A DNA stretch of 64,000 nucleotides from contig OX597820.1 of assembly GCA_951406725.2 (NCBI GenBank), forward strand, positions 102,920,001 through 102,984,000, read 5' to 3'. Numbering within the stretch: the first letter of the stretch is position 1; each line of letters begins with the position of its first letter. A program made the translations under genes and the position numbers. This document shows, piece after piece, positions 1 through 49,902 of the stretch. The notes under the pieces were generated by a model. It ran no database searches. It had not been told where the DNA came from and saw nothing but the letters and a program-made list of their open reading frames with translations. The DNA is from Octopus vulgaris (Eukaryota).

Positions 1-405
1 TAGAGTTAGATGACGTCAGTAATTGGTGTTTGTAAAATTTCATTGGTCTAGAGATAGGTGATGTTGGCAGCTGATGTTTGTATGCTGATTTGGGGTTGCG
101 GTTTCGAAACCAGGGTGGAAGACTGTTATTAAAATTTTTAAACTTCTAAAGGTTACTCAGTTGTAGCTCATATTTTTAACGAGCGTACTTTTTTTTATTT
201 AAACGAAATTGGGAAGTGTTTCTAGTGCATTGATTGAGAGGGAAGATTTGGTATTTCGGGTTTATGTTTATGAGGTATTGCTCTAGGTGTTTGCTTACGG
301 GGTTTTTCCTAGTTGTAGGGTCTCGGATTTGTTGCTTGTGCAACGTAAATGTATCCCTCAAGGTAAAACTAGTTTGACCTATGTAGTCTCCACCGCAATG
401 CCTAA
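1..405 (-). mobile_element. Penelope-like element fragment (GIY-YIG endonuclease C-terminal part and downstream sequence), inverted copy of ~595-998
   Basis: ORF 176..547(-) contains CGGDYIGQTSFTLR..H.QQI, a PLE GIY-YIG signature. The reverse complement of 1-60 matches 941-998 and that of 102-125 matches 873-898. Confidence 0.75.
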
Positions 406-407
406 AA

Positions 408-1704
408 ATGTTTTTTAGCGGCACCAATTTACCTACCAAAAATACAACCCTACCAGTCAAAAAGTGCCCTATCTGCGGAACTTGCATCTTCCTCTTAGAT
501 GGCTCAACATACAGATTTAAGTTAGGCCAAACTTTTATCATAAACAATCACTTCACCTGTGCCTCGAAAAACTTAATCAATGTTCTCAAATGTGGAGGGT
601 GCGGTGGAGACTAGGAAACTTCCTGTAAGCAAATACCTGGACCAATGCCCCATAAACATAAACCCGAAATACTAAATCTACCCTCTCTACCAATGTACCA
701 GAAACACTTCAACCCAATTCCGTGTAAATAAAGAAAACACACTCATTAAAAAATATAAACCACAGCTGAATATCCTTTAGAAAGAAGGAAAAACACTAAA
801 GAGAAAAAGTAAAAAGACTCAAATTCTCCACAAAAAAAACAAGGAACAACAAACAATTTTGAAAAATTAGTTACAGTTTTCCACCTGGGTTTCGAAACCG
901 CAACTCCAAATCACCATACAAACACCAGTTGCCGCCATGTCCTATATCTAGATCAATGAAATTTTACAAACACCAGTTTCTGACGTCACCTAACTCTAGA
1001 CCAATCGAAACCGAACTTCAGCAAATACAACAAAATGACCTTTTAAGAGTATCAACAAACCGGAACGATTGATGGGAGTTCCCCACATAGGAGCCTACCA
1101 GGCAGAACGACAGATTGGATCACCGTAAAAACAAAAGGTCACCAGTATTTTAAAGAATCAAAAACCAGATCCGCTCGCGATAAAATATTATAAATGCACC
1201 GGATTCCAAAACACACCGCTACAAGCGAAAGTTCGTACACATGACGGAAAGAGGATCAGTGAAACTGCAAATCAAATCCCCTTTTCTTAATATCTTCATT
1301 TCCACCTTGTTTTTAACCTCTTAACTCAGTATGACTAAAACTTTGATGATATTCATTTCTTGTCGATCACTATTAGCATTAATGAGATTTGTAATTCAAA
1401 CAAATTGATGCACAGTTTTAATATTATCCACTGTTATGAACATGTAAGCTTGTCAACATCGAAATTTCTGAACATGTTTTTAATGTTATGAACTTTTTAA
1501 TGTCAACATTGAAATTTTTAAAGATGCTTTTCTAATTCATAATTTAAAATTTTTACCATTGATAAACAAAAAATATTGTTAAAACTAGTTTATATATATG
1601 TAAATAAATTTATTTTAAACAATTACAAGATTTTCAAATTTAGGTGCATTTTCAACAAGAAATTTGCCTATATCTTGTCCTGCATCGAAATACACCCTCT
1701 CTTT

Positions 1705-4398: not shown

Positions 4399-5289
4399 AA
4401 ATGTATTATGCATACATAAACACACGTCCACGTACACATACACATACACATATACTCTTTTTTACAAGGTAACGTTTGGAAGGGACTTCGAAGTTTCAGC
4501 TTATCCTCTGTCATCAGACTGCGGTTCACGTTGGTCTTTCTGGTCGTATATTGTGCCTTTGGTAGGTGGAATAATGTGAACGAAAATTTAGCATGGTGTA
4601 GGTAGACAGAAGTTGTGCAGAAAGAGGCCACAGAGAAGGGGAGGAGGAAATTATGCTTCTACGGTGGAAAGGGTTGGGAAGAAGGGATAGTGGAGAGAGT
4701 TATTCTGGTGTAATAGTGAACATTTATTATTTTAAAGTTTCACACAAACAAGCATATAAATAAAGTAGTAAGTTGTTGCTTCGCATTCAGCACGCAATTT
4801 GTGCTAACTGGAGTTATTCTGTCATCTTCATTGAGTTTCAGACCCACGATGAGATCGAGGTGTTGTGCAGCATAAATCTGTAGACTCTCTTAGTGGCCTA
4901 TCTATTGCACCGGATGTTCCCGATTGTTTTACAGATTTGAGCCGCTGTCTAATGCACCGAACACCGAGCTCAGCCTAGTCAGAATCCTGAACTTATTTAT
5001 CGATGCCTGATATCACGCAGTATGATGCTTTGACTTCCAGTAGCGTCCAGATGCATAAGCATCTTCACTCTGAATTCTATGCTCCTTTCTACCTTCGACA
5101 CTGTGATGATGTCATCAAACCGACAGACAATGTCACATCGTTATGTGGTGGCGGGTGAATTTCTGCAGGATTTAAGCCCTGTGACATCTCGGAATGTTAT
5201 TGTCTATTATTCCCTGCTCTTTAGCTACAACCCCTACAACTAACAACGCGTCTCCACCACCACCTACTCAATTATTTCACCTCTTCTAC

Positions 5290-8559: not shown

Positions 8560-8885
8560 GAAATTTTAGAAATACTTTTTCAAGGAGATATGATAAACCT
8601 ATTATAATGGGTAATACTACATGTACTTTTCATATTTTTTATATTGTGATGTAATTGTTTGGACTAACAATGTTTGCGGCTGAAGAGAGCTTTAAACCAT
8701 CTTTTATATTAATAATACACTGATGTAATAACAGATTGTTTATAAAGCTTGAAACACGTGAACCGCGATATCCTTTGTGTTCTGTTTTTAATTTTATTTG
8801 ATATATACTTTCTCACCTCTGCCACAATCTGGCATACACAGGTGCTTACACTTATCAAGTATTCACCCTAAATTTACAGTACCTA
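8560..8885 (+). mobile_element. PLE pseudo-LTR remnant, same family as the 25681-26199 cassette
   Basis: 8767-8885 (tcctttg...ggcatacacaggtgcttacacttatcaagtattcaccc...agtaccta) aligns with the reverse complement of 25681-25796. It contains the HHR motif at 8676-8766. Confidence 0.75.
8676..8766 (+). ncRNA. Type I hammerhead motif, probably inactivated
   Basis: gcgg-CTGAAGA-gagcttta..[long loop]..taaagctt-GAAA-cacgtg-AA-ccgc. Stems I, II and III pair, but the cleavage-site U16.1 is replaced by A. Confidence 0.65.
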
Positions 8886-8904
8886 TATATATATATACAT
8901 GCAC

Positions 8905-11569: not shown

Positions 11570-11756
<187 letters not shown>

Positions 11757-11830
11757 GAAATTTTCAGGGTGAGTACTTGATAATTGTAAGCACCTGTATA
11801 TACCTTTTGGTGGTGTAGGTGATGGAGTAA
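11757..11830 (-). mobile_element. Terminal tail fragment of the PLE pLTR family seen at 25681 and 8800
   Basis: gggtgagtacttgataattgtaagcacctgtatat...gtggtgtaggtgat matches 25698-25755. Flanked by (TA)n on both sides. Confidence 0.7.
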
Positions 11831-11901
11831 ATATATATATATATTTATATATATATATATATATATACAAATACATATCTACACACACACATACCCATAG
11901 A

Positions 11902-19164: not shown

Positions 19165-19414
19165 AACAATTAAGGATAACTTCTTAATAAGGAATCTTAA
19201 CAAGAAATTATCAGGTAGTTAGCGTGAAAAACCTCATAAGAGAAAAATTTCGAAAATAATTCTTTCTTATTGAACATATTAATTTATATATAGAGGGCAT
19301 TATTACACATACATGCCACACGCTAAGAGGGACATTAGTCATTTCTACCAAAAAATTTTACTAATCATACCCAATGCAATTTTTCCAAAGCTAGACATTT
19401 AAAAAAATGAATTT

Positions 19415-19476
19415 AGTCTTGTATCACCTGTGATTTCGTACTTATCGCAGTTTCGACCGTACTCATCAGTAAGACT
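19415..19476 (-). ncRNA. Type I hammerhead ribozyme (left-arm copy)
   Basis: Mirror of 19642-19703. One substitution creates an A-C mismatch in the core-proximal pair of stem I. Confidence 0.75.
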
Positions 19477-19641
19477 GATTCTGAACATATCATAAATAAA
19501 CGAACCTGTACCGTCAAAGCCGAACAGCTATCTGTTCGGATGTATTATATGTAAACTTCCCCATGTGCGTCGTTAGGGTTGAACAGATAGCTGTTCGGCT
19601 TTGACGGTACAGGTTCGTTTATTTATGATATGTTCAGAATC

Positions 19642-19703
19642 AGTCTTGCTGATGAGTACGGTCGAAACTGCGATAAGTACGAAATCACAGGTGATACAAG
19701 ACT
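19642..19703 (+). ncRNA. Type I hammerhead ribozyme, intact core
   Basis: Stem I agtcttg/caagact; CTGATGA; stem II gtac/gtac; GAAA; stem III tcac-ag-gtga; U-A. Predicted cleavage after A19696. Confidence 0.88.
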
Positions 19704-19825
19704 AAATTCATTTTTTTAAATGTCTAGCTTTGGAAAAATTGCATTGGGTATGATTAGTAAAATTTTTTGGTAGAAATGACTAATGTCCCGCTTAGCGTGT
19801 GGCATGTATGTGTAATAATGCCCTC

Positions 19826-19869
<44 letters not shown>

Positions 19870-20289: not shown

Positions 20290-20520
20290 AAATTAACAGA
20301 ATGAGATAAAAATTCAAGGCTGTAAAAGATTTCAGAACATTTACAAAGAGAAGGTCTTACTGCTGCTTCCGGGATATTTTATAAATTCTTCATCGGAGAC
20401 GGTGGGAGAAGATGGTTAAGCAATTGTTATTCTAGAGAAGATATGAAATAGAGAATGAAGTGGAAGAATGAAAACAGACGTGAGATATGCAGGGATATTG
20501 TAACTGCAGTTCCATTATTT
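20290..20520 (-). mobile_element. PLE pLTR remnant homologous to 1795-2000, with HHR-like motif at 20354-20400
   Basis: Reverse complement reads caatatccctgcatatctcac...gtctCCGATGAag...atatcccgGAAGcagcagTAagac. Confidence 0.65.
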
Positions 20521-21365
20521 AAGCAGAATGATATACGTTTCCTGTACCTTGTGTGTAGGTTCCAATAGTATATAAAATTGGTCATTCCATGCATAAAGTT
20601 TGTAAATCGTGTTATTGGATGGAGGGATTTTTTGACTTGAAAAATATATGTGACTTTGGTATTGTAGACGGCTGAGCTAAATATACATGACTTGCCTGGT
20701 GGGTAAATGTCTGGGTTCCTGAAGTTGACGTTTGGAGTGTCTTGTGTGGCTTACGTGAAAAGAAACTATTCAGAGTAGGGCTGCAGCTGTAAAAAACGTA
20801 CACGAAACACCTATTGAAGACTTATTTTTATGGTTATCAGGTAACTATTTATCTACATGTTTCCTAACAGTCAAAAGAGAGAGGGAAGGGTGAACCATAT
20901 AAAGTTTCCTAGGTTTAATTTTAGTCATGATTCTTGTTTGTTTCAGATAGTACTCTCTATCTTCTATCGGTCATTGGCTATGAGAGTGGTGGTAAAGGTA
21001 GTGGGGGGGGGGCTAATATTATAAATTGGATCTCTGACCTCTTTTCCTCCAAAACAGATTTTAAGTCGGCTCTCTTAATGTAGCGCAATTTTTATCCCTC
21101 TTTTCTATTCCTCTTTTACTTTCGTTTTTCTCATGATATGTTCACATTTTCCTTGCATTTCCTCACTGAGTAGCCATGTTATTTGATCTGGACTATTATT
21201 GAATCGTGTAGAGTAGGCATAGCAAGTCCAATTACTGCACCCTCTGAACATAGAACTCACATATAATTCCTTCATTCGTTAAAGGAATATATATATGTGT
21301 GTGTGTATTTACCTGTGTATGTATGTATGTATGTATGTATGTACGTACGTATGTATATATATACA

Positions 21366-21596: not shown

Positions 21597-21639
21597 ATAT
21601 ATATATGTATAGAATGTTTGAAGTGGTGTACAGATATTG

Positions 21640-21845
21640 TATATTGAGAAAATGGAGGCAGTCAGAATGTTGGATAATTCTTTATTAGCGCTTTCGTTCG
21701 TTTATTGAACTCGTCAAGACGAAATCAAAGTGGTAAAAACAGAAAGTTTCGTTGTTCATTTACATGAATCGGATGCTTTTTTGATTTGTTTAGAAGAGGA
21801 GTATATTGTTTTAGTTGTTTTGGAAAAAGGGAAAGAGAGAGAAAT
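21640..21845 (-). mobile_element. Inverted pLTR at the 5' end of the 21850-24665 Penelope
   Basis: The reverse complement aligns with 26340-26555 (ctaaacaaa.caaaaaagca.ccgattcat.taaatga.caa...gtcttgacgag...aaacgaacgaaagcgcta). Confidence 0.7.
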
Positions 21846-21849
21846 ATCC

Positions 21850-24665
21850 ATTATGAAAGCGAAACTACAACAAAAAATGCAAGGAAATGAAAAACAAACA
21901 TAGACACCGAACCCAGATGAACCAAACTAAGGTATCAATCACTAGTTATCCAAGAACATATGAGGAGACGACCTCCAGCTCACCCCAACTGCTGACTAGA
22001 AACCCATATTCTGCAATACAAAAACACAATACTGCAATAAACAAACTCATGGAATATAGAAGACAATCATCAACCCATAATATCAAACACCCAAGATGGA
22101 TGAATACACGGGGAAAAAATAGAAAAGACAAGAAACATGCAGACAACCACTAACCCATAATACCAAGTAACCTAGATGGATAAATACATGGAAAGAAATA
22201 CAAGTAATATACAGACAATACAGAAACCATAATATGAATAATCATCATGGAAACTCAAGAATCTCACGATTCCCTACCAACAATCCCATACATCGTGAGT
22301 GGCTCAACAAGCATAAAAGATGGGAAGAAGACAGAAGTTATAGACAACAAAGTACGTATAAAGAACATGAACCATCCCCTCATCTACGAGAGAACTAGAA
22401 CCTGAAAACAGCAAAAAAATGGAAACACAATAATACAATATCCTTTTTAGGGAGAAAATATCCGGTGCAAGAGGAAATTTTAATGAGCACACAGAACACA
22501 TAAACCCGAAGGTCATAAATTTGTCAAATAGAAACCTCAACAAGAATGAGATGAATCTCCTATTGAAATGTTTCAAATTTACCCCGACGCCAACCCCTAA
22601 TCTCATTGAACTAAACGCTGATATTGAGCATTTTAACCGCCACCTCCGGATTATTGAATTCTTTGGCAATAAGGATATAAATGAGGAATCAATTGCCAGA
22701 GATAAAACCCACTTCACCCGCTTGAAAGGGAATAGACACAATTTCGAAATTTCCCCTAAGTACCCGAAAATACAAACAAAACCTTCGTGAAGAAGAAATG
22801 GAAGCCTTACTAATACTGAAGAATGACAATTCAATCCTCCTAAAAGAAGCCGATACGGGAGAGGCGATAGTAATCATGGACAAAGACTACTATAAAGATA
22901 AAATATTGGAAATTGTACCAGACAAAACCTACTACAACAAAGAACCAAAACAGCCGGAAGAAGCAATAATGGATAAAATCAAAACACTAATTAAAGATTA
23001 CTTCACAGACAAGGAGAAAGATTATTTATGCAACTCTGTAATCAAACGGAGCAATTTCTACGGATTACCCCAAATCCTCAAAAGCCCCTAATTCCAGAAA
23101 GCCATAAATGAACAGAGGAACTAATACATAGAAATACTAAGACCTACTGGCCTCAAACTGAGACCAACAGTTGCTGGACCTCAAGCACCAACACGACACC
23201 TGAGTCATTTCTTGGACATACTCCTAAAATCTTTATGTTCATTAATACCCAACTATATACGGGACGGCATAGATTTCCTCTAGCACATTCCATCCACTCT
23301 CCCAGAAGGTACTATACTTACAAGCTTTCATGTCACCAATCTCTGTACTATTATACCTCGCACTTTGGGCCTGGAAACAAACACTGAGTAGAGAAACATA
23401 GAGGACGGATATATGAACGCTTCAAAACTGATTTCATCACCAAAGCCACACGCCTGGTACTAGAAGAAAACACCTTTAGATTCGATAATAATACATATCG
23501 GGATGCGGTTTGTACCCTCCTCTGCTAACCTAGTCATGGGATTCTTGGAAGAAAAGCTTTATGAGGAAGTAGAAAGAGCTTTTAATCAGAATTGCTAGAA
23601 ATACATAATAAAAAGTGGAAACGCTTCTTCGATGACTACTTCATCTTTTGGGACAGATCAAATGAGGACCTACAAATATTTATTAATATCCTCAAAACAC
23701 TTCACCCATCGATCAAATTCACGACAGAATCCAGTTGCAATGAATTACCGTTCCTGAATATTCACATAAAAAATACACAACTTCACAGTCACAACAGACA
23801 TATTTTACAAAAAAAAAACGGACACGCACCAATATTCTACTCTTGCCATCGAAAGGAACATCCCGTACAGCATGGCAAAACGTATCTGTACTATAATGAT
23901 TGATCCCAAAATACGTCAAATCCGACTCAACAAACTCAAAGACTTCCTAACTAGGCAGAAATACCTCTTAGAATTAATAAACGAAGGAATTAAAAAGGTG
24001 ATGAAGCTGAGCATCACACAGCTAAGGATACCAATGGAAAACAATTAATGAACATACGATTCCATTTAGTAATATGCACAATCCTGGGGTAGCCAACATC
24101 TTTCCCACCGTAAAATCAAACCTACCTATACTTCTACAAAGCCCCAAAATTAAAGATCTGATTGATAAAAAAAAAACCCTTACGAAACAGTAGACTCGAA
24201 CCATAAAATCTCGAAAAACATCTCACAAGAGGAAAATTCACATCAGAAAATGAATCAGAATTCTCCGTAAAAGAATATGGAAATAGCAGACGTGGAACTT
24301 GCAACAACAACAACTTTAAATACTTAGAAAGTAGTTCTCACATAAAATTCAAGGGCGGATTCTCCTTCAAAGCGAGTGCAGATGTGAACTGCAAGACGCA
24401 GAATCTCATATACTGCATTACTTGCTCCAACTGCAAGGAACATTACATTTGCGAAACAAACAATTCCCTCTGCCAACGCGTAAGAATCCACAGACAACAG
24501 ATCCAACAAGAGGAATTGCGCAAAATTCCACTGAGCAATCATCTAGAAATATGCGGTGAAGTAAAATTCAAAATCTTTCCCTTTTACAAATGTTCAAGAA
24601 ATGATACAGAATTCTGAAAAGCAATGGAGCTACACTTCATCAAAAATTTCTTTCGAAGATTAAGT
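21850..24665 (+). pseudogene. Decayed Penelope-like retroelement ORF (RT + GIY-YIG), many stops and frameshifts
   Basis: Colinear motifs: NLSNRNL..E..LL.K.FKFTPTP; KEADTG.AIVIMD; FYGLPQILK; RFFDDYFIFW; HPSIKFT.E...LPFLNI; CKTQNLIYCITCSNCKEHYICET...RVRIH. Confidence 0.92.
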
Positions 24666-24823
24666 GTTTGAAAGAGAAGCAGAGGAAATACATTTTAATT
24701 ATTATTTTTTAACGTTAATGATAATGAAGAGAAAACATTTATATTGTACTATTACTCTTACATCTGAATTTGGCTCCAATGTTAATAACGTGATACTTAT
24801 CTCTATAAATGATCACATATATA

Positions 24824-24885
<62 letters not shown>

Positions 24886-25598
24886 GGATTTTGACAACTG
24901 TTGTTCTTATAGAACTTACAAATACCCAAGAAAGAACACAAGAACGATTTTATTACTGATTGGGAAAGATATCTGATATATCTAGTTGGCAAAGTAATTT
25001 GTGAAAAAATTCTCTTTTGAATTATCTTATCCAACCAAGCAAGAAAAAGAAAAGTAAATCCTACAAAAGGATGAAAGATACTCAAAAATGTATTTAAGCA
25101 GGCCTTGCTTTATTATATAACTTATATCCTACAGAGTGGCTTCCAGTTAGATATACAATATACATACAAAACTCATTTATGATGTTTGATTAAATGTATA
25201 TATATGTAGATTGATTTATAAACAGTACCAACTCATTTCTTTTATATTCTGACTTTATTTTCCAAATTTATGAATATTATACAAAAATGTAATGCTTGTT
25301 CTTGCAAAACATGGAATTACACAGAATATGCGACTTGATTATGCAAGCGGAAAAAAATAGACATTTTCATAGGATTTTGAACTTTGAACTCTTTTTATTT
25401 TTCAGTGATGATCGTACCCTCCCCTCTTTTCTTATTTTTCCATTCTACTTCCTAAAATTGACATCTTGAAAGGTCACTAACCCTTGTGAGAAAATGTGTT
25501 TATTTACAAATATGTTGATAGGTATACAATGGGAAGAAAAATGCTTTGTAATGAAATTTGAATGAATTGACATCAAGTTGAAAAGAACCCTCCCTCTA

Positions 25599-25673
<75 letters not shown>

Positions 25674-25796
25674 TTAGAGTTAGGTACTAAAAATTCCGGG
25701 TGAGTACTTGATAACTGTAAGCACCTGTATATGCCAGTTAGTGGTGTAGGTGATAGGGTATATTTATCAAAAGAAAAACAGGATGCAAAGGAATTA

Positions 25797-25883
25797 GCGG
25801 TACATATGTTTCTGGCTTTATTGGACAGTTTATATCAATGCATAATTGATGTGACATGTATGTCAATAGCCTTCTTCAGCCGC
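25797..25883 (-). ncRNA. Type I hammerhead ribozyme (left-arm copy)
   Basis: Exact mirror of 26098-26184. Confidence 0.8.
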
Positions 25884-26097
25884 GCACAATTACCACACCA
25901 AAGATATGTATTACATTATAGCAGGTTTGAGAAGTTTGGGAAAAAAACGAGTTTCGTTGGGGATGCAAATCCTCATAGTCGTATATAGCAAAGCGAGACA
26001 CCAAAACAAAACGTCCATCCCCAACGAAACTCGTTTTTTTCTCAAACTTCTCAAACCTGCTATAATGTAATACATATCTTTGGTGTGGTAATTGTGC

Positions 26098-26184
26098 GCG
26101 GCTGAAGAAGGCTATTGACATACATGTTACATCAATTATGCATTGATATAAACTGTCCAATAAAGCCAGAAACATATGTACCGC
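26098..26184 (+). ncRNA. Type I hammerhead ribozyme with palindromic stem III
   Basis: gcgg-CTGAAGA-a-ggct.att.gaca..tgtc.aat..agcc-a-GAAA-catatg-TA-ccgc. Predicted GUA cleavage after 26180. Confidence 0.8.
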
Positions 26185-26339
26185 TAATTCCTTTGTATCT
26201 ATCTATTTATCTATCTTTCTGTTTATCCATCTGTCTGCCTGTATGTATGTCTGTCTATTTATCTATCTATCTATCCTTTCCCCATTCTTTACTATTTTTT
26301 CTCCTCTTTCGTGATTGTCCTGAAACCTATCTCTCTGTC

Positions 26340-26555
26340 TATACGCCCCTCTTTACTTTTATTTTATTTTTTAAAAAAAAAGACGCAAACAATATTCTTC
26401 ACAGCTAAACAAAGCAAAAAAGCAACCGATTCATATAAATGAGCAATGAGACGTTCTGCTTTTACCATTTTGACTTTGATTTTGTCTTGACGAGCCCGAT
26501 AAACGAACGAAAGCGCTATAAAGAATTATCCCAAATTCTGCCTGTTCTTTTTCTC
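26340..26555 (+). mobile_element. Direct-orientation pLTR, probably the 3' repeat of the 21850-24665 Penelope
   Basis: Homologous to 21640-21845(-). Contains the HHR-like core TTGACGA...GAAAgcgcTA at 26487-26518. Confidence 0.6.
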
Positions 26556-26556
26556 A

Positions 26557-26589
<33 letters not shown>

Positions 26590-39054: not shown

Positions 39055-41480
39055 AGAGACTTCATTACTGGATATTGGTACAAGAAGCTAACTTTCTACC
39101 GACTATACTTTATCAGTCTGTACCAGCAAGCTTTCATTGGGAACAGTAGCATACCACACTGGTTAGCTCTGGCATTTATCCCCAAATGCAGAACCACCAA
39201 CATGACAAAATACTACCGGCCAATTGCATGCCAGAACTTAATGTATAAGATACAGCATATTGAAACCTCTTCCTCCAAGACCGTTATGAAACCAATTACA
39301 TTATCACAGCATAACAAGCAGCTGGGAAAAAGGGAGTCTGGGGATGTGCCGAGCAATTGATAATCAGCAAAACTGTGATGTCAGGGGTGCAAGACCATAG
39401 GACGAACCTACTTTCAATCTGACGAGAAAACCTTTGACTATGTTCCCCACTCATGGATGATAGAAGCCCTTCAAATAACAAAAGTTCCACTGACAATAGT
39501 AAAAGCCATAGCTCACCTGATTTCATTGCGGGCCACAATATTGAGATTAAACACTAAAGGTAACTGTATTATCACCGATAAAATACAGTATCGCAAAGGC
39601 ATATCACAAGGAGATAGCCTCTCTCAGATGTTGTTAATACTTTCTGTAAACCCCTTGTCATTCATGTTAAGGGAATCTGTAAACCCCTTGTCATTCATGT
39701 TAAGGGAATCTGAAGGATATCTCATTGGTTCACAAGGAATCAGAAATATCAAAATTGAACGCTGTTTCTTTGTGGATGACTTAAAACTTTATGCAAAGAA
39801 TATGCATGAGATGAAAAAGAGCCCTGTAGGATTGGAGTTTGGTCAGGATAAATGGCTGTGAAAATGGGAAGACTACAAACCAGACAAGTAACATTTCCAT
39901 TAGTGACTGTTTCCCTGTATCTGACGAGGAATGTTACAGGTGTCTAGGGGTGGACGAAAATATATCTTATAATGGCACTTATAACAAAACACTTTCCACT
40001 AAGGAATATTACAGCCGAATAAAGAAAATTTGGACCTCACAACTCTCTGCATTCAACAAAACAGTGGCCCACAATGTGTTTGCAGTGCCAGTACTCATAC
40101 TAACATTTGGGCTGCTTGGTTGGACGCTTGGTGAGATCCGAGCCATTGAAGTGAAAACCCCCCAAAATACTAACAAGCATACATAATTTCCACATAAACA
40201 GTGACGTAGACCGCTTCCACCTAAAACGAAAACAATGCGGCAGAGGCTTAACATCGGTCCAAAATTCCTTCGAATGTCGCGTCATATCCCTTCGACAACA
40301 TATTTTAACCACTAAGTGTCCAAGTGCATCCCTTGACCAATTTTGCATACATGAGGCTAACATCATAAAACTTGGAAGGCAGCTCCTTGTGCGACACTCT
40401 CATAAAATATTATACATGCCCAAAGAAGTCGCATGACTACCGCAACGTATCATCAGATGAAAAGATGAGTCAATATGAACAGAAGACTATGCATAGACAT
40501 GTCAGTACAAAGCTCTGTGATAATAGTAACATCGATCATCAAAGCAGTTTATTATGGACCAATAGCCAGATTACTACCTCCCACTTTGAAAGGGTATGCA
40601 TTTGCAATCCAGGAACAGGAAATATCAACCAAGTACCTGGTGCATAAAAGGGATACAGTTGCAGAAAAATCAGTAAAATGTAACAACCGATGCAGACTTT
40701 GTGGAGTTCATACTGAAGATATCACCCATACCATAAGCAGTTGTCTGAAAATGTCATCACGGTATCACTGTTGTAATTAGGACACGCTATAACGAAATCC
40801 GTCGGAAGGTTAATCCCGAGGACAAAGAAATAAGAACCCACAATATGGTAAAACCCATAGCCGCTCATAATATAAACGAATACTGGTGGAATATATCAGT
40901 GAAGACCGCAATAAAATGTAAGCAAAACAGACCTGGTGTAATGATTTGGGATAAAGAAGAGAAACTGTGCACAGTTGTGGAAATTAGCTGCCCAGCGGAT
41001 AACATATAAAAGAAAAACACCTATGCTGAACTATTGAGAAAGCTGCAGTTACTCTATCGGATAGAGTCTATCCAGATTACAAGTTCAGGTTTATGCCTGT
41101 AATTATTGGAGCCCTGTGATATGTAACACACTGCCTAAATACCAGCCTTGAGAAATTAAGCTTCTCAAAACCAGAAAGGAGAAAGCTAATTTGAAGACTA
41201 CACATCTAATCCATCACTGGAACTGTGAAAATCAGTAAAACTTTCCAGTTTATCATTTAAATATATATGTGCATGTCTAGATATGCAACTATATGCATGA
41301 GAATACATACATAAAATATACAAGTGTGCATATACATACATATATACATACATACATACAAACAAACAAACAAAAATATCCCATTGTTGATGTTGAAATT
41401 CCAATGAAAGAGCCTTGGATCTGGGTTAGAAACTGGTTCTTTCTCTATTGTCAAGAAATCTTGAAATAAACTTATTAATA
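39055..41480 (+). mobile_element. R4/Dong-like LINE (RT + CCHC + restriction-like endonuclease), 5'-truncated and decayed
   Basis: YRPIACQNLMYK; GISQGDSLS; FFVDDLKLYAK; AIQEQEISTKY; CRLCGVHTEDITHTISSC; NRP..MIWDK......VEISCP. Flanked by (CATA)n. A 33-bp tandem duplication lies at 39642-39711. Confidence 0.88.
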
Positions 41481-41619
41481 ACATACATACATACATATAT
41501 TCATTCATTCATAAACACACTCTCATACATACATACAAACATACATACGTACGTAGTACATACATGCCTATATACATACGTACATACATTGATATAAAAA
41601 TACATGTATGTATGTATGT

Positions 41620-41860
41620 TTCCAGTTGCGGGGACATCCGGCATACAGTCCAGGTCTTGCTCCTTCCGCCTATCACCTCTTTGAGTGCCCAAATATTCTT
41701 TACAAGATCGTCGATTTACTACAGATGAAGAAGTATAGGAAGTGGTTCATAAATGTCTGAGTGACAAGCCGTAAACATTTTCCAATGGAATGAATAAGCT
41801 TGTAAAGCGCTGGAAAATGTGCATCGAAAAACAAAGACACTATCTCGAAAAATTATGTTC
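41620..41860 (+). mobile_element. Mariner C-terminal remnant
   Basis: catccggcatacagtccaggtcttgctccttccgcctatcacctcttt translates as HPAYSPGLAPSAYHLF. ORF 41790 reads MNKLVKRWKMCIEKQ..Y.EK. Confidence 0.8.
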
Positions 41861-42131
41861 AACCCCTGCTTTTATTTTAATAGTTGTTTGGCCACTATGC
41901 CAAACCCGAGTTCTTTGTCTGCTTTGCCAGGAACGCCGAAACACTGATTATTGCTTTATATATATCGTAAAATATATTTGCGAACTAAATGTGGCGGACC
42001 CATAGAGGACAATGTTACTGTTGTTTTTAGCCCCAGTAAGACATTTCCTCCAGCTGAGTAACGACACACTGTCTGTCCGATTAGTATTTGCGAAGGGAGG
42101 TCATCGCTCCCATCTCTAGCCTTACGTGATA

Positions 42132-42176
42132 CACACAGACCCGGGTTTCTGATTAGTTACCCGTCTTCAGTGTGTG
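42132..42176 (-). ncRNA. Minimal type I hammerhead ribozyme
   Basis: Minus strand reads cacaca-CTGAAGA-c-gggtaactaatc-a-GAAA-cccggg-TC-tgtgtg: 6-bp stem I, palindromic stem III, GUC site. Confidence 0.78.
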
Positions 42177-42464
42177 ATAATTACCAGCCAGTGATGGAAA
42201 CTCCTCCCACTCGCTAAATACTATATGCTTTTTCCAGCGACAAAATGTCGCTAATCTCGAGAAAGGAGAAATAAGCTATATGAAATTTCTGGGCGACAGG
42301 TAAACAGTAACAGTGCGGAATCATAAAATATATTCGTCAACTAAATGTGGTGGTCTCATAGAGGACGATGTTACTGTTGCTCAGAGATTTGATGTAGCTT
42401 TTTCTCCTTTTTCGAGATCGCTGGAAAAAGCATATAGTATTTTGTAAGTGGAATGAGTGTTCAT

Positions 42465-42509
42465 CACTAGCTGAAGACGGATAACTACCCAGAAACCCAG
42501 GTCTGTGTG
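42465..42509 (+). ncRNA. Minimal type I hammerhead, degenerate stem I
   Basis: cactag-CTGAAGA-cggataactaccca-GAAA-cccagg-TC-tgtgtg. Confidence 0.6.
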
Positions 42510-42729
42510 AATCACGTAAGTCTAGAGATGGGAGCGATGACCTCAACTCGCAAATATTAATCGGACAGAGAGAGTCTGTCGTTAACCAATTGTAGAAGAT
42601 GTCTTCATGGGGCTTAAAACAACAGTAACATCGTCCTCTGCGGGACTGCCACATTTAGTTGGCAAATATATTTTACGATTCCGTTCTGTTACTGTTTACC
42701 TCTCTATCAGTGATTTGATATAGCTAATA

Positions 42730-44436
42730 TAGCTAGTTATGAAGCTCAGTTTAAAAGAGACTACACTTCAGATAACCCCTTACTAAAAAACATCTGGACA
42801 CAAAAATCTCTACAGGAATAAATACATGTCCACCTAGATCAAACAATCAACATCCAAAAGAACACAAACACACAAAACTGACCCATCGTCTAAAAGAAAA
42901 CCATTCTCGATCTAATAACAGGGACAACTCACCAATTAGAAACACTAGAAGAAACCAACATAAAGTTAGGAGTAATTTTTTCTCTCAGCAACGAGAAACA
43001 TCCAAGAGACCCCCTTTACTCCTCAACGAAGAAACTCAACCTACGGAACCTCATCGTATTTACCCAGACAACACAACCAGCTCCCCAGCATTCCAAATAT
43101 AATTAGGCACCCCAACAATTCATTCCAACGAAGAAACCCAAGCCACGTGCTCCCAGCCAGTTTACCCACGCAGCAACACCAACCTCCCAGCAATCCCAAC
43201 ATAAATAATAATACTGATTTAATTAATAACAATATCTCCAATGATATCTTCTAGCAACCAAACTGCAATAAACATTTTTTAGACCGAGTGGAAAGAAACA
43301 GGGACACACGTTGGAACAAAACGTACCGGGAGAAACCCAAAGTCATTAACTTATCAAAGAAAACTCTATCCATAATAAAAATCAATATACTAGCCAAAGG
43401 TTTAAAGTTTACTTCAAACCCCACGAAGGTCTAACCATAATGAAATTAAAGACAATATTTCGGAATTCTGCAGAAAATTACGACTCGCAGAAGCACTAAC
43501 TGACTGCAACAACACAGCAGTAATTACCTTCCACATAAGGGTAGGAATAAAACACTGGATGACTTCTACGACCATATCAAAAATTTCCCACATACCTCCA
43601 TTAAACGAAAAAATAATTCGAACCTCAACAATCTAGAATAGAAAAATCTAATTGAACTACAAAACGACAAAGACCTGACAAAGAAGCAGACAAAGGAAGT
43701 GCTGTAGTCCTGATTGACACAGAACACACTATAAAAACCTAGTATTATCCATACTAGAAAACGAGGTCTTCTACGAAAATGTTATAAACTATAAACAACA
43801 AAAAAAAACAAGGAAAAGAAACGGACTACATCACGAACTTCAAATGTAAACCCAGTCTTTTTTACGGCCTTCCTAAAATACACAAGAGCAAGATAATCAA
43901 TGAAGCCTGCAAACAATCACCAGGCAAATACATAAATATCCAAACACCAGAAGACTTAACTTTAAGACTCATTGTAGTTGACCCACCACCTGAGCAATTT
44001 TCTAGACATCCTAATGAAAACCTTGCTAAAATAATCAAAAGTTTCATTAGAGATGATTTAAACATGCTAGAATACCTACCAAAAACAATTAATGTAGAGG
44101 CAATATTGGTTACCTTCGATGTTATCAATCTTTACACCAACATCCCACATGACTATGAAATAGAAGCAATCAAAATCTGGTTGGAAAAGTACCCCCACAG
44201 TACACCCGGAACTCATAAATCAGAATTTTATTAACGGTTCTTTAAAACTTATACTTCAGAACAACTATTTCCTATTTGATGACACATACTATCGTTAAAA
44301 ATGCGTAATTGCGATGAGAACGAAAGCAGTCCCTGTTCTTGCGAACCTAATAATGAAGTATCACTTCAAAAATATGGTTACCCATTTTACCATTATATAA
44401 GAGAGAACTGGAAAAGATACTTGGATGATTGTTTTA
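42730..44436 (+). pseudogene. Decayed Penelope-like element, 5' half (N-terminal region and RT up to YLDD)
   Basis: VINLSKK..S......LAKGLKFT; EADKGSAVVL; FYGLPKIHKS; LVTFDVINLYTNIPH; WKRYLDDCF. Confidence 0.9.
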
Positions 44437-47086
44437 GTTAGTTAGTTAGTTAGTTAGTTAATTTGGCTCAAAAGCAAATAGCAAGGCCATGTAGGGGGAC
44501 ATGGAGTTAAGTACAGGGTGGTGTTCATGTAAAGAGTTCAGGCCACTTGAGGTCAAGGGAGACTTTGAACAAAGCGGTCGTCGGCATCTTCACCATCTCG
44601 TCTGGCAGCTTGTTCCACGGATCCGCAACCCGGACGGAGAAAGCTCCTCTCCTTCGATTGAGATGAAATCGTCGCAGGTAGAGCTTTTCGGAATGACCCC
44701 GCAGCCGACGCTCTGGAGCAGGAGTGAAGAACAGCTCTTTCGAGAGGTTACACTTTCCGCTTATGATGTTGTGGGCGAGAATGAGATCACCACGGCGGCG
44801 GCGTTTTTCAAGAGAATAAAGGTCGAGCGTCCTCAGCCTTTCTTCATAGGACAAATTTTTGAGACCATGAACCATGCGGGTAGCCAGCTTCTGGACTCTT
44901 TCGAGATGCTGTATGTCTTTGAGGAGATAAGGAGAAGAGGCTTGAATCCCGTACTCCAATATGGGTCTCACCAGCGTGACATAGAGTGGTAGGAATATGG
45001 CTGCTGTGAGCATTCTGAATGACCGTCGAATCAAGAACAGAATTCCGCGTGCTTTGTTGGCAGCATGGACGTACTGGGCCGAAGGCGAAAAGGAGGAATC
45101 CACCAAGATACCCAGGTCCTTTACCTGATTGGTCCTCTCCAGCAGCAGACGACCCGGCTCGAAATCAAGTTGAGTTGCAGGAGGAGAGCCAACAGGCAGA
45201 TGACAGCACTTTGACACGTTCAGACACAGGTCCCATTCGTTAGACCACTTCCAAATTTGGTGGAGGCATCGACGAAGATCCTCTGTATCACCGCGAGGAG
45301 CGGCCAGTTTGATATCGTCGGCAAATAGAAGGGTGTGTTGCGTGAGGTCGTCGGGCAAGTCATTTATGAAGACTAAGAACAATAAGGGCCTAAGCACTGA
45401 ACCTTGAGGCACGCCACTGCTCGCACTGGAGACGTCGGACCGCGAACCATTAACTTGGACTTGGAAGGAGCGATCTGAGAGGAGGGCACCAACCCAACGT
45501 ACAATATCCGGATGGAAACTATATGCTTGAAGCTTGACAAGTAATAGGCGGTAGTTTACCGAGTCAAAAGCTTTGGCAAAGTCCAATAAAACGATGTCAA
45601 CAGCATCACTATCATCGAGGATGCGCGTCACTAATTCTTCCACTACCAGTAAGTTGGTCAAGCATGATCTCTTTGGCACGAAGCCGTGTTGGGAATCAGA
45701 GATAGAGGCTGTGTTTTGGAGGTGGAGCATCATACTTTTCTTAAGGATGGTTTCGAACATCTTGCTGATTATTGATGTAAGGAAACCGGTCGGTAGTTAA
45801 GCGGGTCTTCGCGGCTCCCTTTCTTGAAAATTGGGCAGATTATCGCTGTTCTCCAGTCCGCAGGTATAACACCCATCGCCAATGACATATTGAATAGACG
45901 TGTTAAGGGCTCGCAGATGACCGGAGCCAACGCTTTGATAACCCGTGGGTGTATGCCGTCAGGGCCGTGACCCTTGTTGACATCGAGGCCTTGAATAACA
46001 CGTTTGACTTCGTCCCGCGTGATGACCAATCTAGGCATTGGAGGTACCGATCTATCAAATGAAGGGGGTTCACGACCATCATCTTGTTTGAAAATAGTTG
46101 AAAAAGCCTCGGCAAATAATTGACTCTGTTGATAAGGGTCCCCAATCGATACGCCTGTTGAGTCTACCAACGTTGCAATCTGTTGTTCAAGCGGGAATTC
46201 CGTTGGACATGGGCAAAGAAGGTTTTTGGATTGCTACTGGCATTTGCCGCGAATTTGTATTCATAACTGAAGCGTTCTCCCTTTTCAATTTTCACGGCTC
46301 GGTCTCGTTGAGTTTTGTACACCTCAAAAGCTGCAGTCGAATCCAGATTTTTTAATTCAGCCCAAGCAATATCTCTGAGTCGACGTTCTCATTTAACCTT
46401 CTTCGTCACCCAGGGCTTGTGCTTCTTCTTCTTGGGAAGCCCAACGGGAACTGCCTGGTCAGTCAACCAGATTACATATGCTTTGAGGGATGACCATAGT
46501 TCGTCAACTGAGGACAACGTCATCAGGGATCGCCAGTCCAGAAGCGCGGAAGCCTCGGTTAGAATTTCAAGATTAATTGCAGAGAAGACTCTACGTGGCA
46601 GCGAAGTAGTCGTGGGCGTAGAAAAAGTTGTGTGCATGACGAACTTCAGGACCGCATGATCACTCTTGGCAAGAGGGGCGCACACAGATACGTCTGACAC
46701 TGATCTTGGATAGCGGGAGAATACCAGATCCAGCATAGATGGCTGCTGCCCAGACCGATGCCTTGTCGGATATTCAACATGTTGCGATAGAAAACAATCT
46801 TCAGCCACGTCAAGAAGGGCCTGGCCGAACCGGGAAGATGTTGTACAAATTGATGCGGGTCAATCGATCGTGGGAGCGTTGAAGTCTCCTAGTACCAAAC
46901 AGTCATACGAAGCTGAAACGAATCTTATCGCTTCGAGTAAATGAGCATCGTCCTGGGGGTCGGCAAGAGGCGGCCTGTAGTCAGCTAACACGGGCAGGCA
47001 AAACTCGGATAGGCTTAGCTTGCAATAGACGGCATCGAATTTCGTTGTAGGTTGAGCATTAGTGGGTAGAATACCGCTGGACGGTA
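44437..47086 (-). mobile_element. CR1-like LINE (APE + RT), 5'-truncated, with (TAAC)n 3' tail, nested in Penelope
   Basis: APE motifs LVLGDFNAP, LDLVFS and SDH, plus RT motifs. The GC content is visibly higher than the flanks. Candidate TSD ttta at 44433-44436 and 47087-47090. Confidence 0.92.
44525..45760 (-). CDS. LINE reverse transcriptase (ORF2 C-terminal 411 aa, frameshifted from the upstream part)
   Basis: QHGFVPKRSCLTNLL; LDFAKAFDSV; SGVPQGSVL.PLLFLVFINDL; LFADDIKL; VKDLGI; VRPILEY; LERVQKLATR; R.RGDLI. Confidence 0.85.
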   Translation of the reverse strand: MFETILKKSMMLHLQNTASISDSQHGFVPKRSCLTNLLVVEELVTRILDDSDAVDIVLLDFAKAFDSVNYRLLLVKLQAYSFHPDIVRWVGALLSDRSFQVQVNGSRSDVSSASSGVPQGSVLRPLLFLVFINDLPDDLTQHTLLFADDIKLAAPRGDTEDLRRCLHQIWKWSNEWDLCLNVSKCCHLPVGSPPATQLDFEPGRLLLERTNQVKDLGILVDSSFSPSAQYVHAANKARGILFLIRRSFRMLTAAIFLPLYVTLVRPILEYGIQASSPYLLKDIQHLERVQKLATRMVHGLKNLSYEERLRTLDLYSLEKRRRRGDLILAHNIISGKCNLSKELFFTPAPERRLRGHSEKLYLRRFHLNRRRGAFSVRVADPWNKLPDEMVKMPTTALFKVSLDLKWPELFT

Positions 47087-48110
47087 TTTATCATTTGGAA
47101 GGAGACCATCGACAAACGTTTGGACTTCAAATCAACACTAAATGATATAAATAGTAACATTTAATTCACAATGAATATAACAAAGAACAGCTCTCATTTT
47201 TAGACATCATGATAAAAAAAAGCCAACAATCAAATTATAACTGACATCTATTATAAACCAACGGACTTGAAACAATATCTCCTCTTTAGCGCATGCCACC
47301 CAAAACACATCAAAATAAATATCCCCTTTAATTTGGCAAGAGGATTTGCACATTAGTGTCTGATAGAATTACTTCAAGACATCTTCAAGACCTCAAAACA
47401 ACGCTTAGTGAAAAACAATATCCACCCTCATTTATAGACGAGGGAATTAAACGTGCCAAAAAATTATACGCAAAAACACTAAGAACAACAAAATATAACA
47501 CCACAACTTATCTCAAAACACTACTGTTTATATCAACACACAACCCCAGAAACAGTGAGGCATTCAACGCTATTGTGCAAAATCTTCCTTTACTAACTAG
47601 AGATCCCAAAATGAACGACATCCTGAAACCGCACAAACTCATCAAATGCAAAAAGCAGCACACATCGCTAAATTGACTGCTAACAAATGCGAAGTTTTAC
47701 AAAACAACTACTAATCCAACGGTTAAAAAATATGGGCACCCAAACTATGGAACCTGTCCTAACTTATTTGAAGGCTCGGATTTCCTTTTCAAACAAGGAG
47801 AGAGGTTCACAATTAAAACTAGTTTCACTTGTGCCTCTGAGAACCTAATTTATGTAATAACCTTCTCGGATTGTGGACACAACTATATTGGACAAACGAG
47901 TATGACCTTGAGACGGAGACCCACTCTAAATAAAGAGCAAATTCGTTTACGCAATACAGGCAAATTCCTATCAGTGAACATATAGAAAAATGAGCAGATA
48001 ACATCAAATCATATTTCAAAGTCTTCCCCTTTTACAATTTCTCCACAAGAACGTTTAAATAAAGAAACTTTTTCATAACCAACTTTTATCTTTTTACATA
48101 TTTCAATTCA
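47087..48110 (+). pseudogene. Decayed Penelope-like element, 3' half (RT thumb + GIY-YIG)
   Basis: Resumes with FIIWK; LSFLDIMI; TDIYYKPTD..QYL.F.ACHPKH.K.NIPFNLARRIC; FTCASENLIYVI...CGHNYIGQT. Confidence 0.9.
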
Positions 48111-48162
48111 CAATTACATAATCGTGTACATAAATCCCCTCGAAACTATAAGCTCTTTTGTT

Positions 48163-48209
<47 letters not shown>

Positions 48210-48217
<8 letters not shown>

Positions 48218-48780
48218 ATATTATATTAAATTAGAGAATATAAAAGTTAAAAATAAAAGATTATTTAAACTGATAAATTTTATATATATATACAAATATA
48301 TATATATATATGTATGTATATTTTTATATTATTTTATTAATTAATTAATTTATTTATTTATTTATTTATTTATTTATTCTAAAAAGCAAATGTATTAAAA
48401 GTTTTACACTTTATCTTTATTAAACTTTTAATACTTTTGATATTTATTTAAAAAAATAATTAATTAATAAATTAATTAATTAATAAATAAAATAATATAT
48501 AAATATAAAAATTTACATACATACATATATATATATTTGTATATATATATAAAATTTATTAGTTTAAATTATTTTAATATTTTTTTTATTTTTAACTTTT
48601 ATATTTTAAAATTAATTTTATGTATTGGCTTATGGTTTTCACTGTCTGATTTGCCTAATAGTGGTTTTATCTCTAATTTAATATAATATAATATAATATA
48701 ATATATTTATACTATAAAATTGGATTTAATGCTAAATCTAATTTTTCCCTGTAAGTTTGGATTTATTCCCTAATATTATT
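48210..48780. repeat. Extremely AT-rich imperfect fold-back, ending in a pLTR-like tail
   Basis: 48241-48404 mirrors 48422-48601 (tttaaact.ataaattttatatatatatacaaat / atttgtatatatatataaaatttat.agtttaaa). Outer pair tatattaaattagaga / tctctaatttaatata. Confidence 0.65.
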
Positions 48781-49290
48781 ATTATATATATATATATATA
48801 TTACCCTCCCCTTACCGAAAGCTGAACAGTTATCTCCCTTGCCCACAACAATAACAATAATAACGATAGCCAATTACTTCCCCTTATTTTTCTACTTGAA
48901 ATCATTCACTCGTAAATATCATCATACACAACATACACAAAAATTTCATGAATAGCGAAAGCGAAACCGATCGATATATTAAAAATTATATTAAAACTAT
49001 GTAAAGTGTGTATATTTTCCTTTTTAAATTTATTCTATATATATATGTGTGTGTGTGTGTGTTTATATATATGTGTGTGTGTGTGTTTATATATATATGT
49101 GTGTGTGTGTTTTACTATATATATAGTAAAAACTATTTGACAACATAATATGGCAGTCCCGGTTGGGACGAATGTTACTGTTATTTAGCCCAAGGAAACA
49201 TCGTCTCTAGCTGGCCATGCGACACACTATTTGTGTCCTAATATTTTCAAATAGGGGAGTTTAGCAATCCCCACTCAGCACAAAGCAATA

Positions 49291-49335
49291 TCTGTGGACC
49301 TTGGTTTCTGGGTTATTTCTCTTCCTCGGCACAGA
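49291..49335 (-). ncRNA. Minimal type I hammerhead (U4C core variant)
   Basis: Minus strand reads tctgtg-CCGAGGA-a-gag-aaataa-ccc-a-GAAA-ccaagg-TC-cacaga, with a perfect 6-bp stem I. Confidence 0.7.
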
Positions 49336-49620
49336 ATAACTGCTCGGCTAGAGATGGTGACGCCAAAAAAATTACACATATTTCTGATCTAATACACAGA
49401 AGCATTATTATTTCTAAATCTCTCAACGAGAGGCATTCAGCAACATTGCTCTAAAGTAAAGATTATTTGCCAACATAATGTGGAAGTCCTGGCTGGGACG
49501 AATGTTATGGTTATTTAGCCTCAGGAAACATCGTCTCCAGCCAGCTATACGAGACATTACCTGTGTCCTTATATTTTCGAACAGGGGAGTTTAGCATCCT
49601 TACTCAACACAAAGCAATAC

Positions 49621-49664
49621 CTGTGGGCCGCGTTTTCTGGGTTATTTCTCTTCCTCCGCTCAGA
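49621..49664 (-). ncRNA. Degenerate second HHR copy, 330 bp from the first
   Basis: Minus strand reads tctgag-CGGAGGA-agagaaataaccca-GAAA-acgcgg-CC-cacag. Core and cleavage site are mutated. Confidence 0.5.
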
Positions 49665-49902
49665 ATAACTGTTCGGTTAGACTTGGCGCTACGAAACCCC
49701 TGATGAGTGAGGATGCTAAGCTCCCCTGTTCGAAAATATAAGGACACAGATCGTGTGTCGTATAGCCAACAGCAGTCGATAACAGTAACATACGTCCCAA
49801 TCGAGACTGCCACATTATGTTGGCAAATAATCTTTATTTTAGAATACTGTTACTGAATATCTCTCATTGAGAGACTTAGAAATAACAGTGATTCTATATA
49901 TC

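Follow-up and report, generated by a model that had tools for sequence, protein, structure and literature searches.

A decayed ribozyme-bearing fold-back beside a Penelope-like element in octopus DNA is probably a retrozyme moved by Penelope machinery

Main

A ribozyme-bearing repeat that abuts the reading frame of a Penelope-like element (PLE) raises a question of ownership: is it the terminal repeat (pLTR) of that element, or a separate mobile unit that came to rest beside it? We addressed this for a fold-back at 41964–42728 of a 64,000-nt stretch of DNA (the window), an AT-rich, microsatellite-laden piece of animal DNA whose SINEs we take to resemble those of octopus. The fold-back is a long, imperfect, head-to-head arrangement of a ~340-nt non-coding unit. 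It had been pointed out that this unit stands next to a Penelope-like open reading frame (ORF) and could be either a pLTR or a parasite; the neighbourhood is as described, and of the two readings we find the parasite likelier.

Animal retrozymes are a known class (Cervera 2020; Li 2026 preprint), and their mobilization by PLEs has been proposed rather than demonstrated in the accessible text of both sources (PMC7229834; bioRxiv 10.64898/2026.07.22.740005). The first describes non-LTR retrozymes as low-GC tandem repeats of 150–450 bp, with mussel units of 350–390 bp, and names PLEs as their likely driver (PMC7229834); the second makes the case for non-LTR retrozymes being non-autonomous PLE derivatives (Li 2026 preprint). 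A literature search that covered few subscription papers and had repeat databases outside its scope yielded no such cephalopod retrozyme and no octopus family combining Penelope with a hammerhead, and the words ribozyme, hammerhead and retrozyme have 0 occurrences in the accessible text of the octopus repeat paper (among PMC6765202, PMC6962438 and PMC13282606). PLE-type ends of retrozymes were likewise not found described in the running text of the papers covered.

Here we describe a unit with one type I hammerhead per repeat that is arranged in tandem within two arms, has a fixed end on (TA)n and contains no coding frame common to the arms. We conclude that it is probably an old, decayed non-LTR retrozyme that was moved by Penelope machinery, and not the pLTR of the adjacent element.

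Results

The two arms of the fold-back are built from the same tandem unit in opposite orientations (Table 1). The left arm holds 356 + 60 nt of it, with the direct repeat at 41964–42023 and 42320–42379 (52 of 60 positions identical), and the right arm repeats its first 19 nt (42381–42399) at 42707–42725 with 17 of 19 identical; the 30-nt difference in period is accounted for by three gaps (14, 17 and 1 nt) and 2 additional nt, and 179 of 207 columns are identical where one arm is aligned with the other inverted. Both periods and the inversion thus agree with the original prediction. The terminal redundancy of ~19 nt that it emphasized is present too, but the same 19 nt also lie within the left arm, so that the redundancy is simply slightly more than one tandem period. 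At its far end the right arm extends 46–49 nt beyond the fixed end (42680–42728) in the manner of a tail, and a 9-nt duplication marks the junction between the unit and the PLE. The left-arm stretch 42293–42380 (~88 nt) has no partner at the start of the right arm.

Table 1. Positions of the fold-back, its relative and the neighbouring element in the window.
Feature	Position	Strand	Description and basis
(TA)n target	41955–41963		Short; adjoins the outer end of the minus arm; basis, sequence
Left arm	41964–42379	minus	1.17 units, 356-nt period
Most conserved unit end	41964–42030	minus	AC-rich, with two small hairpins, immediately preceding the fixed end; basis, alignment and consensus fold columns 315–346
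Type I hammerhead	42121–42184	minus	Core 42170 to 42138; basis, descriptor scan, pair counts and covariance model
Head-to-head junction	42374–42381		Microhomology, 5 of 6 nt
Right arm	42381–42728	plus	1.07 units, 326-nt period; end at 42725–42728
Broken hammerhead	42471–42509	plus	Core preserved; helix I has lost its 5′ strand
Leader or N-terminal region of Penelope-like element	42729–43310	plus	A/C-rich; no homology to the unit or to named proteins
Decayed Penelope-like ORF	43311–48081	plus	Stops and frameshifts; interrupted by a LINE; basis, tblastn with 8 named proteins
LINE within Penelope RT	44461–47090	minus	Ends in (TTAG)n at 44434–44460
Candidate own 3′ pLTR of Penelope	48800–49035	plus	GC skew −0.44; hammerhead-like motif 59 nt before (TA)n
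Related fold-back	49122–49901	minus arm 49122–49696, plus arm 49701–49901	Followed by a SINE; no ORF

The unit has neither an LTR nor a protein. Five ATG frames of 35–105 aa overlap the region, none common to both arms, and no PLE protein matches inside the unit. No target-site duplication was seen at the 42-kb locus beyond ATATA or TA runs, a search of three arms with three patterns for Pol III A and B boxes gave no exact match, and Tandem Repeats Finder did not report the unit; a tRNA origin was rejected on the strength of 0 predicted tRNA genes. Across the 42-kb locus and the related one at 49 kb the GC content is 37–43%, below the limit of ~45–50% set for non-LTR retrozymes, the periods are 356, 326 and 330 nt, and each arm contains 1.07–1.7 units. 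The left-arm monomer folds at −117.7 kcal/mol (linear z = −5.05; 0 of 100 shuffles as good), and circular folding of three sense monomers gave z scores of −4.7 (left arm), +0.1 and −1.6, so strong self-pairing is confined to one of the three and is matched by some antisense strands. The end of the unit at 41964, where a microsatellite begins 172 nt past the cleavage site, would correspond to the RNA's 3′ end and presumably to its priming site; the conserved stretch just before it, whose single-copy folds are weak (z +0.8 to −1.8), is a candidate signal for the reverse transcriptase (RT).

The left arm carries the one complete ribozyme of the 42-kb locus, that of the right arm being broken. Its core is unaltered (CUGAAGA...GAAA), with predicted cleavage between 42138 and 42137. 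Helix I has 6 bp (42176–42171 with 42137–42132, cacaca/tgtgtg), followed by a UAU/U internal loop and a distal helix I beyond it; the helix II region has 14 nt between the core boxes and a C·A mismatch at its base; and helix III is a perfect 8-nt palindrome with cccggg at its centre. In the plus-arm monomer the core of the hammerhead is intact, and 17 nt including the 5′ strand of helix I are lost; a covariance model that was not trained on this copy scored it at 46.8 bits (E = 1e-10). In the 49-kb hammerhead (49329 to 49297) helix I reads tctgtg/cacaga and the helix III centre ccaagg, so the stems first quoted for the two loci are accurate, and both 49-kb hammerheads are changed at core position 4.

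A strict hammerhead descriptor gave three matches in the window (19649, 42170 and 49329) and none in any of 20 shuffles, while the loosest of four settings gave 4 against a shuffle mean of 0.55. Rfam returned 0 matches in the window at gathering score and, with E up to 10 over 41.8–50 kb, five unrelated weak matches, none of them a hammerhead.

Other ribozyme-like sequences occur elsewhere in the window. The best preserved, at 19649–19696 (plus; intact core, 7-bp helix I), is unrelated to the 42-kb unit and belongs to a fold-back on TA tracts (19276–19842) whose arms are 93% identical and carry a type I hammerhead each. Another fold-back (25782–26199), in a (TATC)n tract and with arms 92% identical, has in each arm a hammerhead with a 60-nt helix II and an A·A mismatch at the base of helix II, as in the 49-kb unit; related pieces lie at 8742–8900 and 11726–11836, where a 108-nt 'extension' of this fold-back is also found and is either a tail or a separate repeat. 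Isolated hammerhead-core matches at 4517–4484 and 53819–53785 (minus), with no helix I and no second copies, may be due to chance.

Covariation had been claimed for the stems in general, and it is clear for helix I alone. All six pairs of the proximal helix I have changed on both sides relative to the 49-kb relative, which is good, though not formal, evidence of a conserved pairing, amounting as it does to one independent contrast between two subfamilies at two loci. Two-sided changes affect 8 of 18 pairs overall on three copies (2 of 500 shuffles). The structure used for counting was drawn from these copies themselves, and shifting the register by two columns leaves 5 two-sided pairs, owing to the dinucleotide repeat. 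In helix II, 67% of cells are paired with no two-sided change, and its base (the 10.1–11.1 pair) is an N·A mismatch in all four copies; a U·U mismatch at this place has been reported in axolotl (PMC7229834). Between cccggg and ccaagg in helix III, both changed bases lose their pairing. RNAalifold, applied to the four copies, showed no net contribution from covariation (+0.44 kcal/mol), and ViennaRNA, with an energy model that has no tertiary terms, disfavours the active fold (−0.6 versus −20.5 kcal/mol as monomer, −21.9 versus −41.0 as dimer). Selection acted on helix I, and on the family, while the two subfamilies were diverging; the ribozyme copies of today are probably dead or weak.

The 49-kb locus is a diverged relative of the 42-kb one, as proposed at the outset (blastn E = 7e-13), and shares its layout of a minus arm, a centre of 91 nt and a partial plus arm, the minus arm holding 1.7 units with a 330-nt period and two degenerate hammerheads. 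Copies are 83–87% identical within a locus and 58–67% between loci, and a tree groups them by locus with 100/100 support. In the 64-kb window a covariance model and nhmmer recovered only these two loci, with four matches at E of 1e-10 or better, three of which were training rows, and the next at E = 0.1. The centres left unpaired in the two fold-backs are of near-equal length (~88 nt at 42293–42380 and 91 nt at 49610–49700) and lie at different places of the unit. The first position of the 49-kb plus arm (49701) is ~16 nt downstream of where the ribozyme is predicted to cut, as though the arm had been copied from a cleaved linear RNA; a CTGATGA at the 49.7-kb junction was discarded as a by-product of the join.

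Two features common to both loci bear on how the unit spread. First, the head-to-tail junction and the period are kept between loci that are only 58–67% identical, from which it follows that the short unit itself replicated. Second, the outer ends fall in the same alignment column within ~2 nt, at 174 and 175 nt beyond the cleavage site, each on (TA)n. By an arithmetic estimate, two ends placed at random on a circle of 340 nt would agree to within 2 nt in ~1.5% of cases; a distance of no more than 5 nt from a TA tract applies to 1.7% of the positions in the window. This coincidence runs against the circular permutation of ends that had been considered; at these two loci the outer ends are fixed and resemble the fixed priming site of Penelope. 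The plus arms overrun that end by 49 nt at 42 kb and ~61 nt at 49 kb, the last ~10 nt of the latter overlapping the head of a SINE.

The neighbouring ORF is itself heavily decayed. Eight named proteins align with it piecewise and colinearly from 43339 to 48069, split by the LINE; the best named match is oyster LOC111107980 (39% identity, E = 2e-50), and the nearest source-named proteins are from bivalves. By these matches its domain order is RT, CX2-5CxxC linker and C-terminal GIY-YIG, the window copy keeping only a remnant of the linker; Pfam recognizes GIY-YIG at E = 0.065 only, and two other ORF stretches have no Pfam match. A CX2-5CxxC linker before a C-terminal GIY-YIG is a mark of Neptune and Nematis (PMC8557442), and on its aligned domains the adjacent ORF is assigned to a Neptune/Nematis-type EN+ PLE. 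The intervening LINE, with a 423-aa open frame (44525–45796; RVT_1 E = 3e-26) and a GC content near 0.49 against a background of 35%, looks much younger than its host.

Between the unit and the ORF, the segment 42729–43310 has a GC skew of −0.40 and an AT skew of +0.34, as does the ORF approximately, in contrast to the unit, which has no strand skew. One 762-aa relative has a VxNLS motif at residue 21, so the segment is either a leader or an unaligned N-terminus. An apparent continuation of unit homology into 42729–42753 by nhmmer was unsupported by anchored alignment (p = 0.46 and 0.60), a weak test in which the positive control reached only p = 0.057.

To the left of the unit, 39379–41260 and 41610–41880 contain decayed RT and restriction-like endonuclease frames, which by motif we take to be Dong/R4-like, and a transposase tail, presumably mariner-like by motif, for which Pfam gave no match on 3 frames. 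The other PLE copies in the window belong to families different from that of the adjacent ORF. They include a second decayed Neptune-type element (21630–26572) with an inverted 5′ pLTR and a 3′ pLTR that are 82% identical and both end on (TA)n; both carry a ribozyme motif unlike that of the unit, with core position 3 occupied by U and helix I not evident. In addition, a 5′-truncated PLE fold-back occupies 1–998, with GIY-YIG fragments at 167–409 (minus) and 393–777 (plus) and inverted flanks, and another probable pLTR is present in two copies (1770–2007 and 20290–20527, 82%), the first directly after a TA tract and with a minimal-type ribozyme motif at 1901–1940.

Could the unit be the pLTR of the adjacent Neptune-type element, consisting of short ribozyme-bearing tandem repeats? 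In that case 41964–42728 would be its inverted-plus-direct 5′ end and the 46–49 nt its tail, the 3′ copy would have been lost between TA tracts, and the 49-kb unit would be the solo pLTR of a sister family. The order of inverted copy, direct copy and tail found directly upstream of the ORF corresponds to the typical PLE 5′ end, described with a 31-bp tail (PMC3846280), the ORF has no other 5′ pLTR, and the decay of unit and ORF looks to be of similar order. Axolotl PLEs with tandem ribozyme copies are mentioned in PMC7229834, and retrozymes and pLTRs are close kin in Xenopus (bioRxiv 10.64898/2026.07.22.740005). We keep this reading, the chief rival, under consideration as an unlikely one.

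Downstream, the ORF lacks a same-strand copy: from 48081 to 49122 there is no plus-strand unit copy, and the nearest relative, only 58–67% identical, has the other strand first. The 49-kb unit was rejected as the 3′ pLTR of the same insertion, given that copies group by locus and its first arm is on the wrong strand. At the place expected for a 3′ pLTR there is instead an unrelated ribozyme-like motif (48948–48976), minimal and hammerhead-like, with an A3–U8 core pair and no helix I. Motifs of this type arise in 26 of 2,000 local shuffles, the motif folds no better than shuffles, and the surrounding candidate pLTR has no second copy in the window and could be a separate solo insertion. Between the end of the ORF and this candidate lies a very AT-rich, degenerate fold-back (48191–48716, 68%) in which no ribozyme was recognized.

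The upstream side points the same way. Composition switches at 42729, the unit lacking the skew of the ORF, the leader and the pLTRs, and the 49-kb plus arm remains unit-like to about +61, beyond the point where the 42-kb copy meets the leader, although its last ~10 nt overlap the SINE head. Compared with 13 segments (pLTR ends, leader and flanks), the unit resembles none of them once 13 tests are allowed for, the lowest uncorrected p being 0.02 and the positive control scoring 111. The second Neptune-type element of the window retains its matching pLTR pair (82%) with a different ribozyme. A 'canonical' metazoan hammerhead has been distinguished from the minimal type of PLEs, which has a long helix II of 7–8 bp, a short helix I and an unpaired base before helix II (PMC4209133); the geometry here is canonical, not minimal, the minimal type being a tendency and not a rule. 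Only the 42-kb locus adjoins an ORF start, and alignment of named proteins found no PLE ORF beside or to the right of the 49-kb unit. Fixed, non-permuted ends always joined to the PLE ORF had been put forward as the mark of a plain pLTR; the fixed end does not make the unit one, given a relative that has no ORF and an adjacent ORF that has no downstream same-strand copy.

A local rearrangement of a solo pLTR, by DNA-level tandem duplication and inversion with no RNA mobility of the short unit, strikes us as very improbable. Local amplification from a PLE terminus has been proposed (bioRxiv 10.64898/2026.07.22.740005), and derived sites common to the inverted arms at 49 kb (87/83) could reflect DNA duplication or conversion; set against this are two separate loci with the same period junction, outer end and two-arm layout together with compensatory changes. 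Finally, a MITE or other DNA fold-back element with a chance ribozyme match would suit a long inverted repeat at a TA site and the silence of Rfam, but is largely refuted by the descriptor shuffles (0 matches in 20) and by helix I (6 of 6 pairs covarying), its arms being also unequal, out of register and internally periodic and its target duplication not exceeding ATATA, and we give it almost no credence.

The terminal redundancy had been read as a sign of a circular template. In 3 of 4 arms the RT crossed the cleavage site, which leaves as template either an uncut multimer or a ligated circle, and an uncleaved tandem transcript gives the same redundant pattern. One monomeric circle is expected to produce a star tree. 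The 49-kb copies depart from this: 4 derived substitutions and 1 deletion unite the plus arm with the inner minus copy, and none unite other pairings (support 87/83), which would fit a mixed tandem template or subsequent conversion. At 42 kb the left-arm segments have 2 derived sites in common within 60 nt, other pairings again having none, a pattern that would fit separate templates for the two arms. These numbers are small and neither prove nor exclude a circle; a circular template is neither shown nor needed.

Discussion

What makes a non-LTR retrozyme the probable identity of the unit, on the sequence features available, is its size, GC content and ribozyme geometry, the helix I changes, the kept period and the shared outer ends on (TA)n. 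Against it count the restriction to two loci, a unit–tail–ORF layout that is a textbook PLE 5′ end, a poor helix II, the preference for an inactive fold and the silence of Rfam. The present copies are probably inactive. By the 'active retrozyme' rule of the Li preprint, neither 42-kb arm has two complete ribozymes; that rule tests activity, and we therefore treat the locus as an inactive relic.

An inverted 5′ copy, a one-sided tail and a bias for microsatellites are described marks of PLEs (PMC8557442, PMC3846280), and internal initiation of reverse transcription has been shown in vitro for a PLE (PMC11167929). For a retrozyme moved by Penelope machinery we envisage that tandem transcripts would be cut by the ribozyme into monomers or circles, probably as a dimer via the palindromic helix III. 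A Penelope-type RT/GIY-YIG protein would nick a TA tract and start copying from a fixed internal position of the RNA, ~175 nt beyond the point of cleavage. If both DNA strands served as primers, two 5′-truncated arms could result, joined head to head by microhomology, with the tail of ~50–60 nt on one of them.

Why the unit touches a Neptune-type element can be explained in more than one way. The flanks of the unit would join into one short TA run and the 49-kb relative lies in a TA tract at the other end of the element; that unit and element both used the same TA tract is a possibility we put forward tentatively. A little less probable is that the element's RT, while copying its own RNA, switched to that of the retrozyme. 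The 9-nt junction duplication fits shared targeting and a template jump alike. More doubtful is that the 42-kb junction records a single co-insertion, in which the Neptune-type RT copied its own RNA and jumped to the retrozyme RNA, a second priming at the fixed internal site making the inverted arm. If true, such a co-insertion would have left in the genome a direct trace of what drives a non-LTR retrozyme, and retrozymes would be primed at a fixed internal PLE-type site and not randomly on a circle.

A single decayed locus by itself changes nothing. What is usefully added is a fixed Penelope-type end common to two diverged copies, through which the driver hypothesis becomes testable: the marks of Penelope-type insertion that these copies bear, in their head-to-head arms, their end on TA and a one-sided tail, offer a cheap genome-wide test both of that proposal and of the circular template.

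The unit is like the metazoan non-LTR retrozymes of PMC7229834 in size, low GC, tandem repeats, the lack of an LTR or ORF and the presence of PLEs in the same genome, and also in its single type I hammerhead with a 6-bp helix I and a short palindromic helix III and, in one copy here, in its self-paired monomer. Its hammerhead geometry (6-bp helix I, 14-nt helix II region, palindromic helix III) is that of the canonical metazoan type (PMC4209133). It differs from those retrozymes in having only 1.1–1.7 units per arm, a mismatch at the base of helix II and decayed copies (PMC7229834). For a two-arm insertion, a fixed end on (TA)n and a one-sided tail, we found no mention in the two retrozyme main texts. 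These are the traits in which the unit approaches the pLTRs of EN+ PLEs of the Neptune/Nematis type, with which it has in common an inverted 5′ copy, a one-sided tail, a fixed internal priming site, TA targeting and a type I hammerhead with a palindromic helix III (PMC8557442, PMC3846280, PMC4209133, PMC11167929). It departs from them in lacking a downstream same-strand copy and in its short internal period and canonical ribozyme, as well as in a tail of 46–61 nt against 30–40 and the absence of strand skew. The Li preprint makes the same proposal, of PLE origin and movement, from co-occurrence and pLTR homology in Xenopus; as far as its accessible text goes, that work is mostly vertebrate and homology-based, whereas here, where the window offers no pLTR homology, the link to PLEs rests on the anatomy of the insertion.
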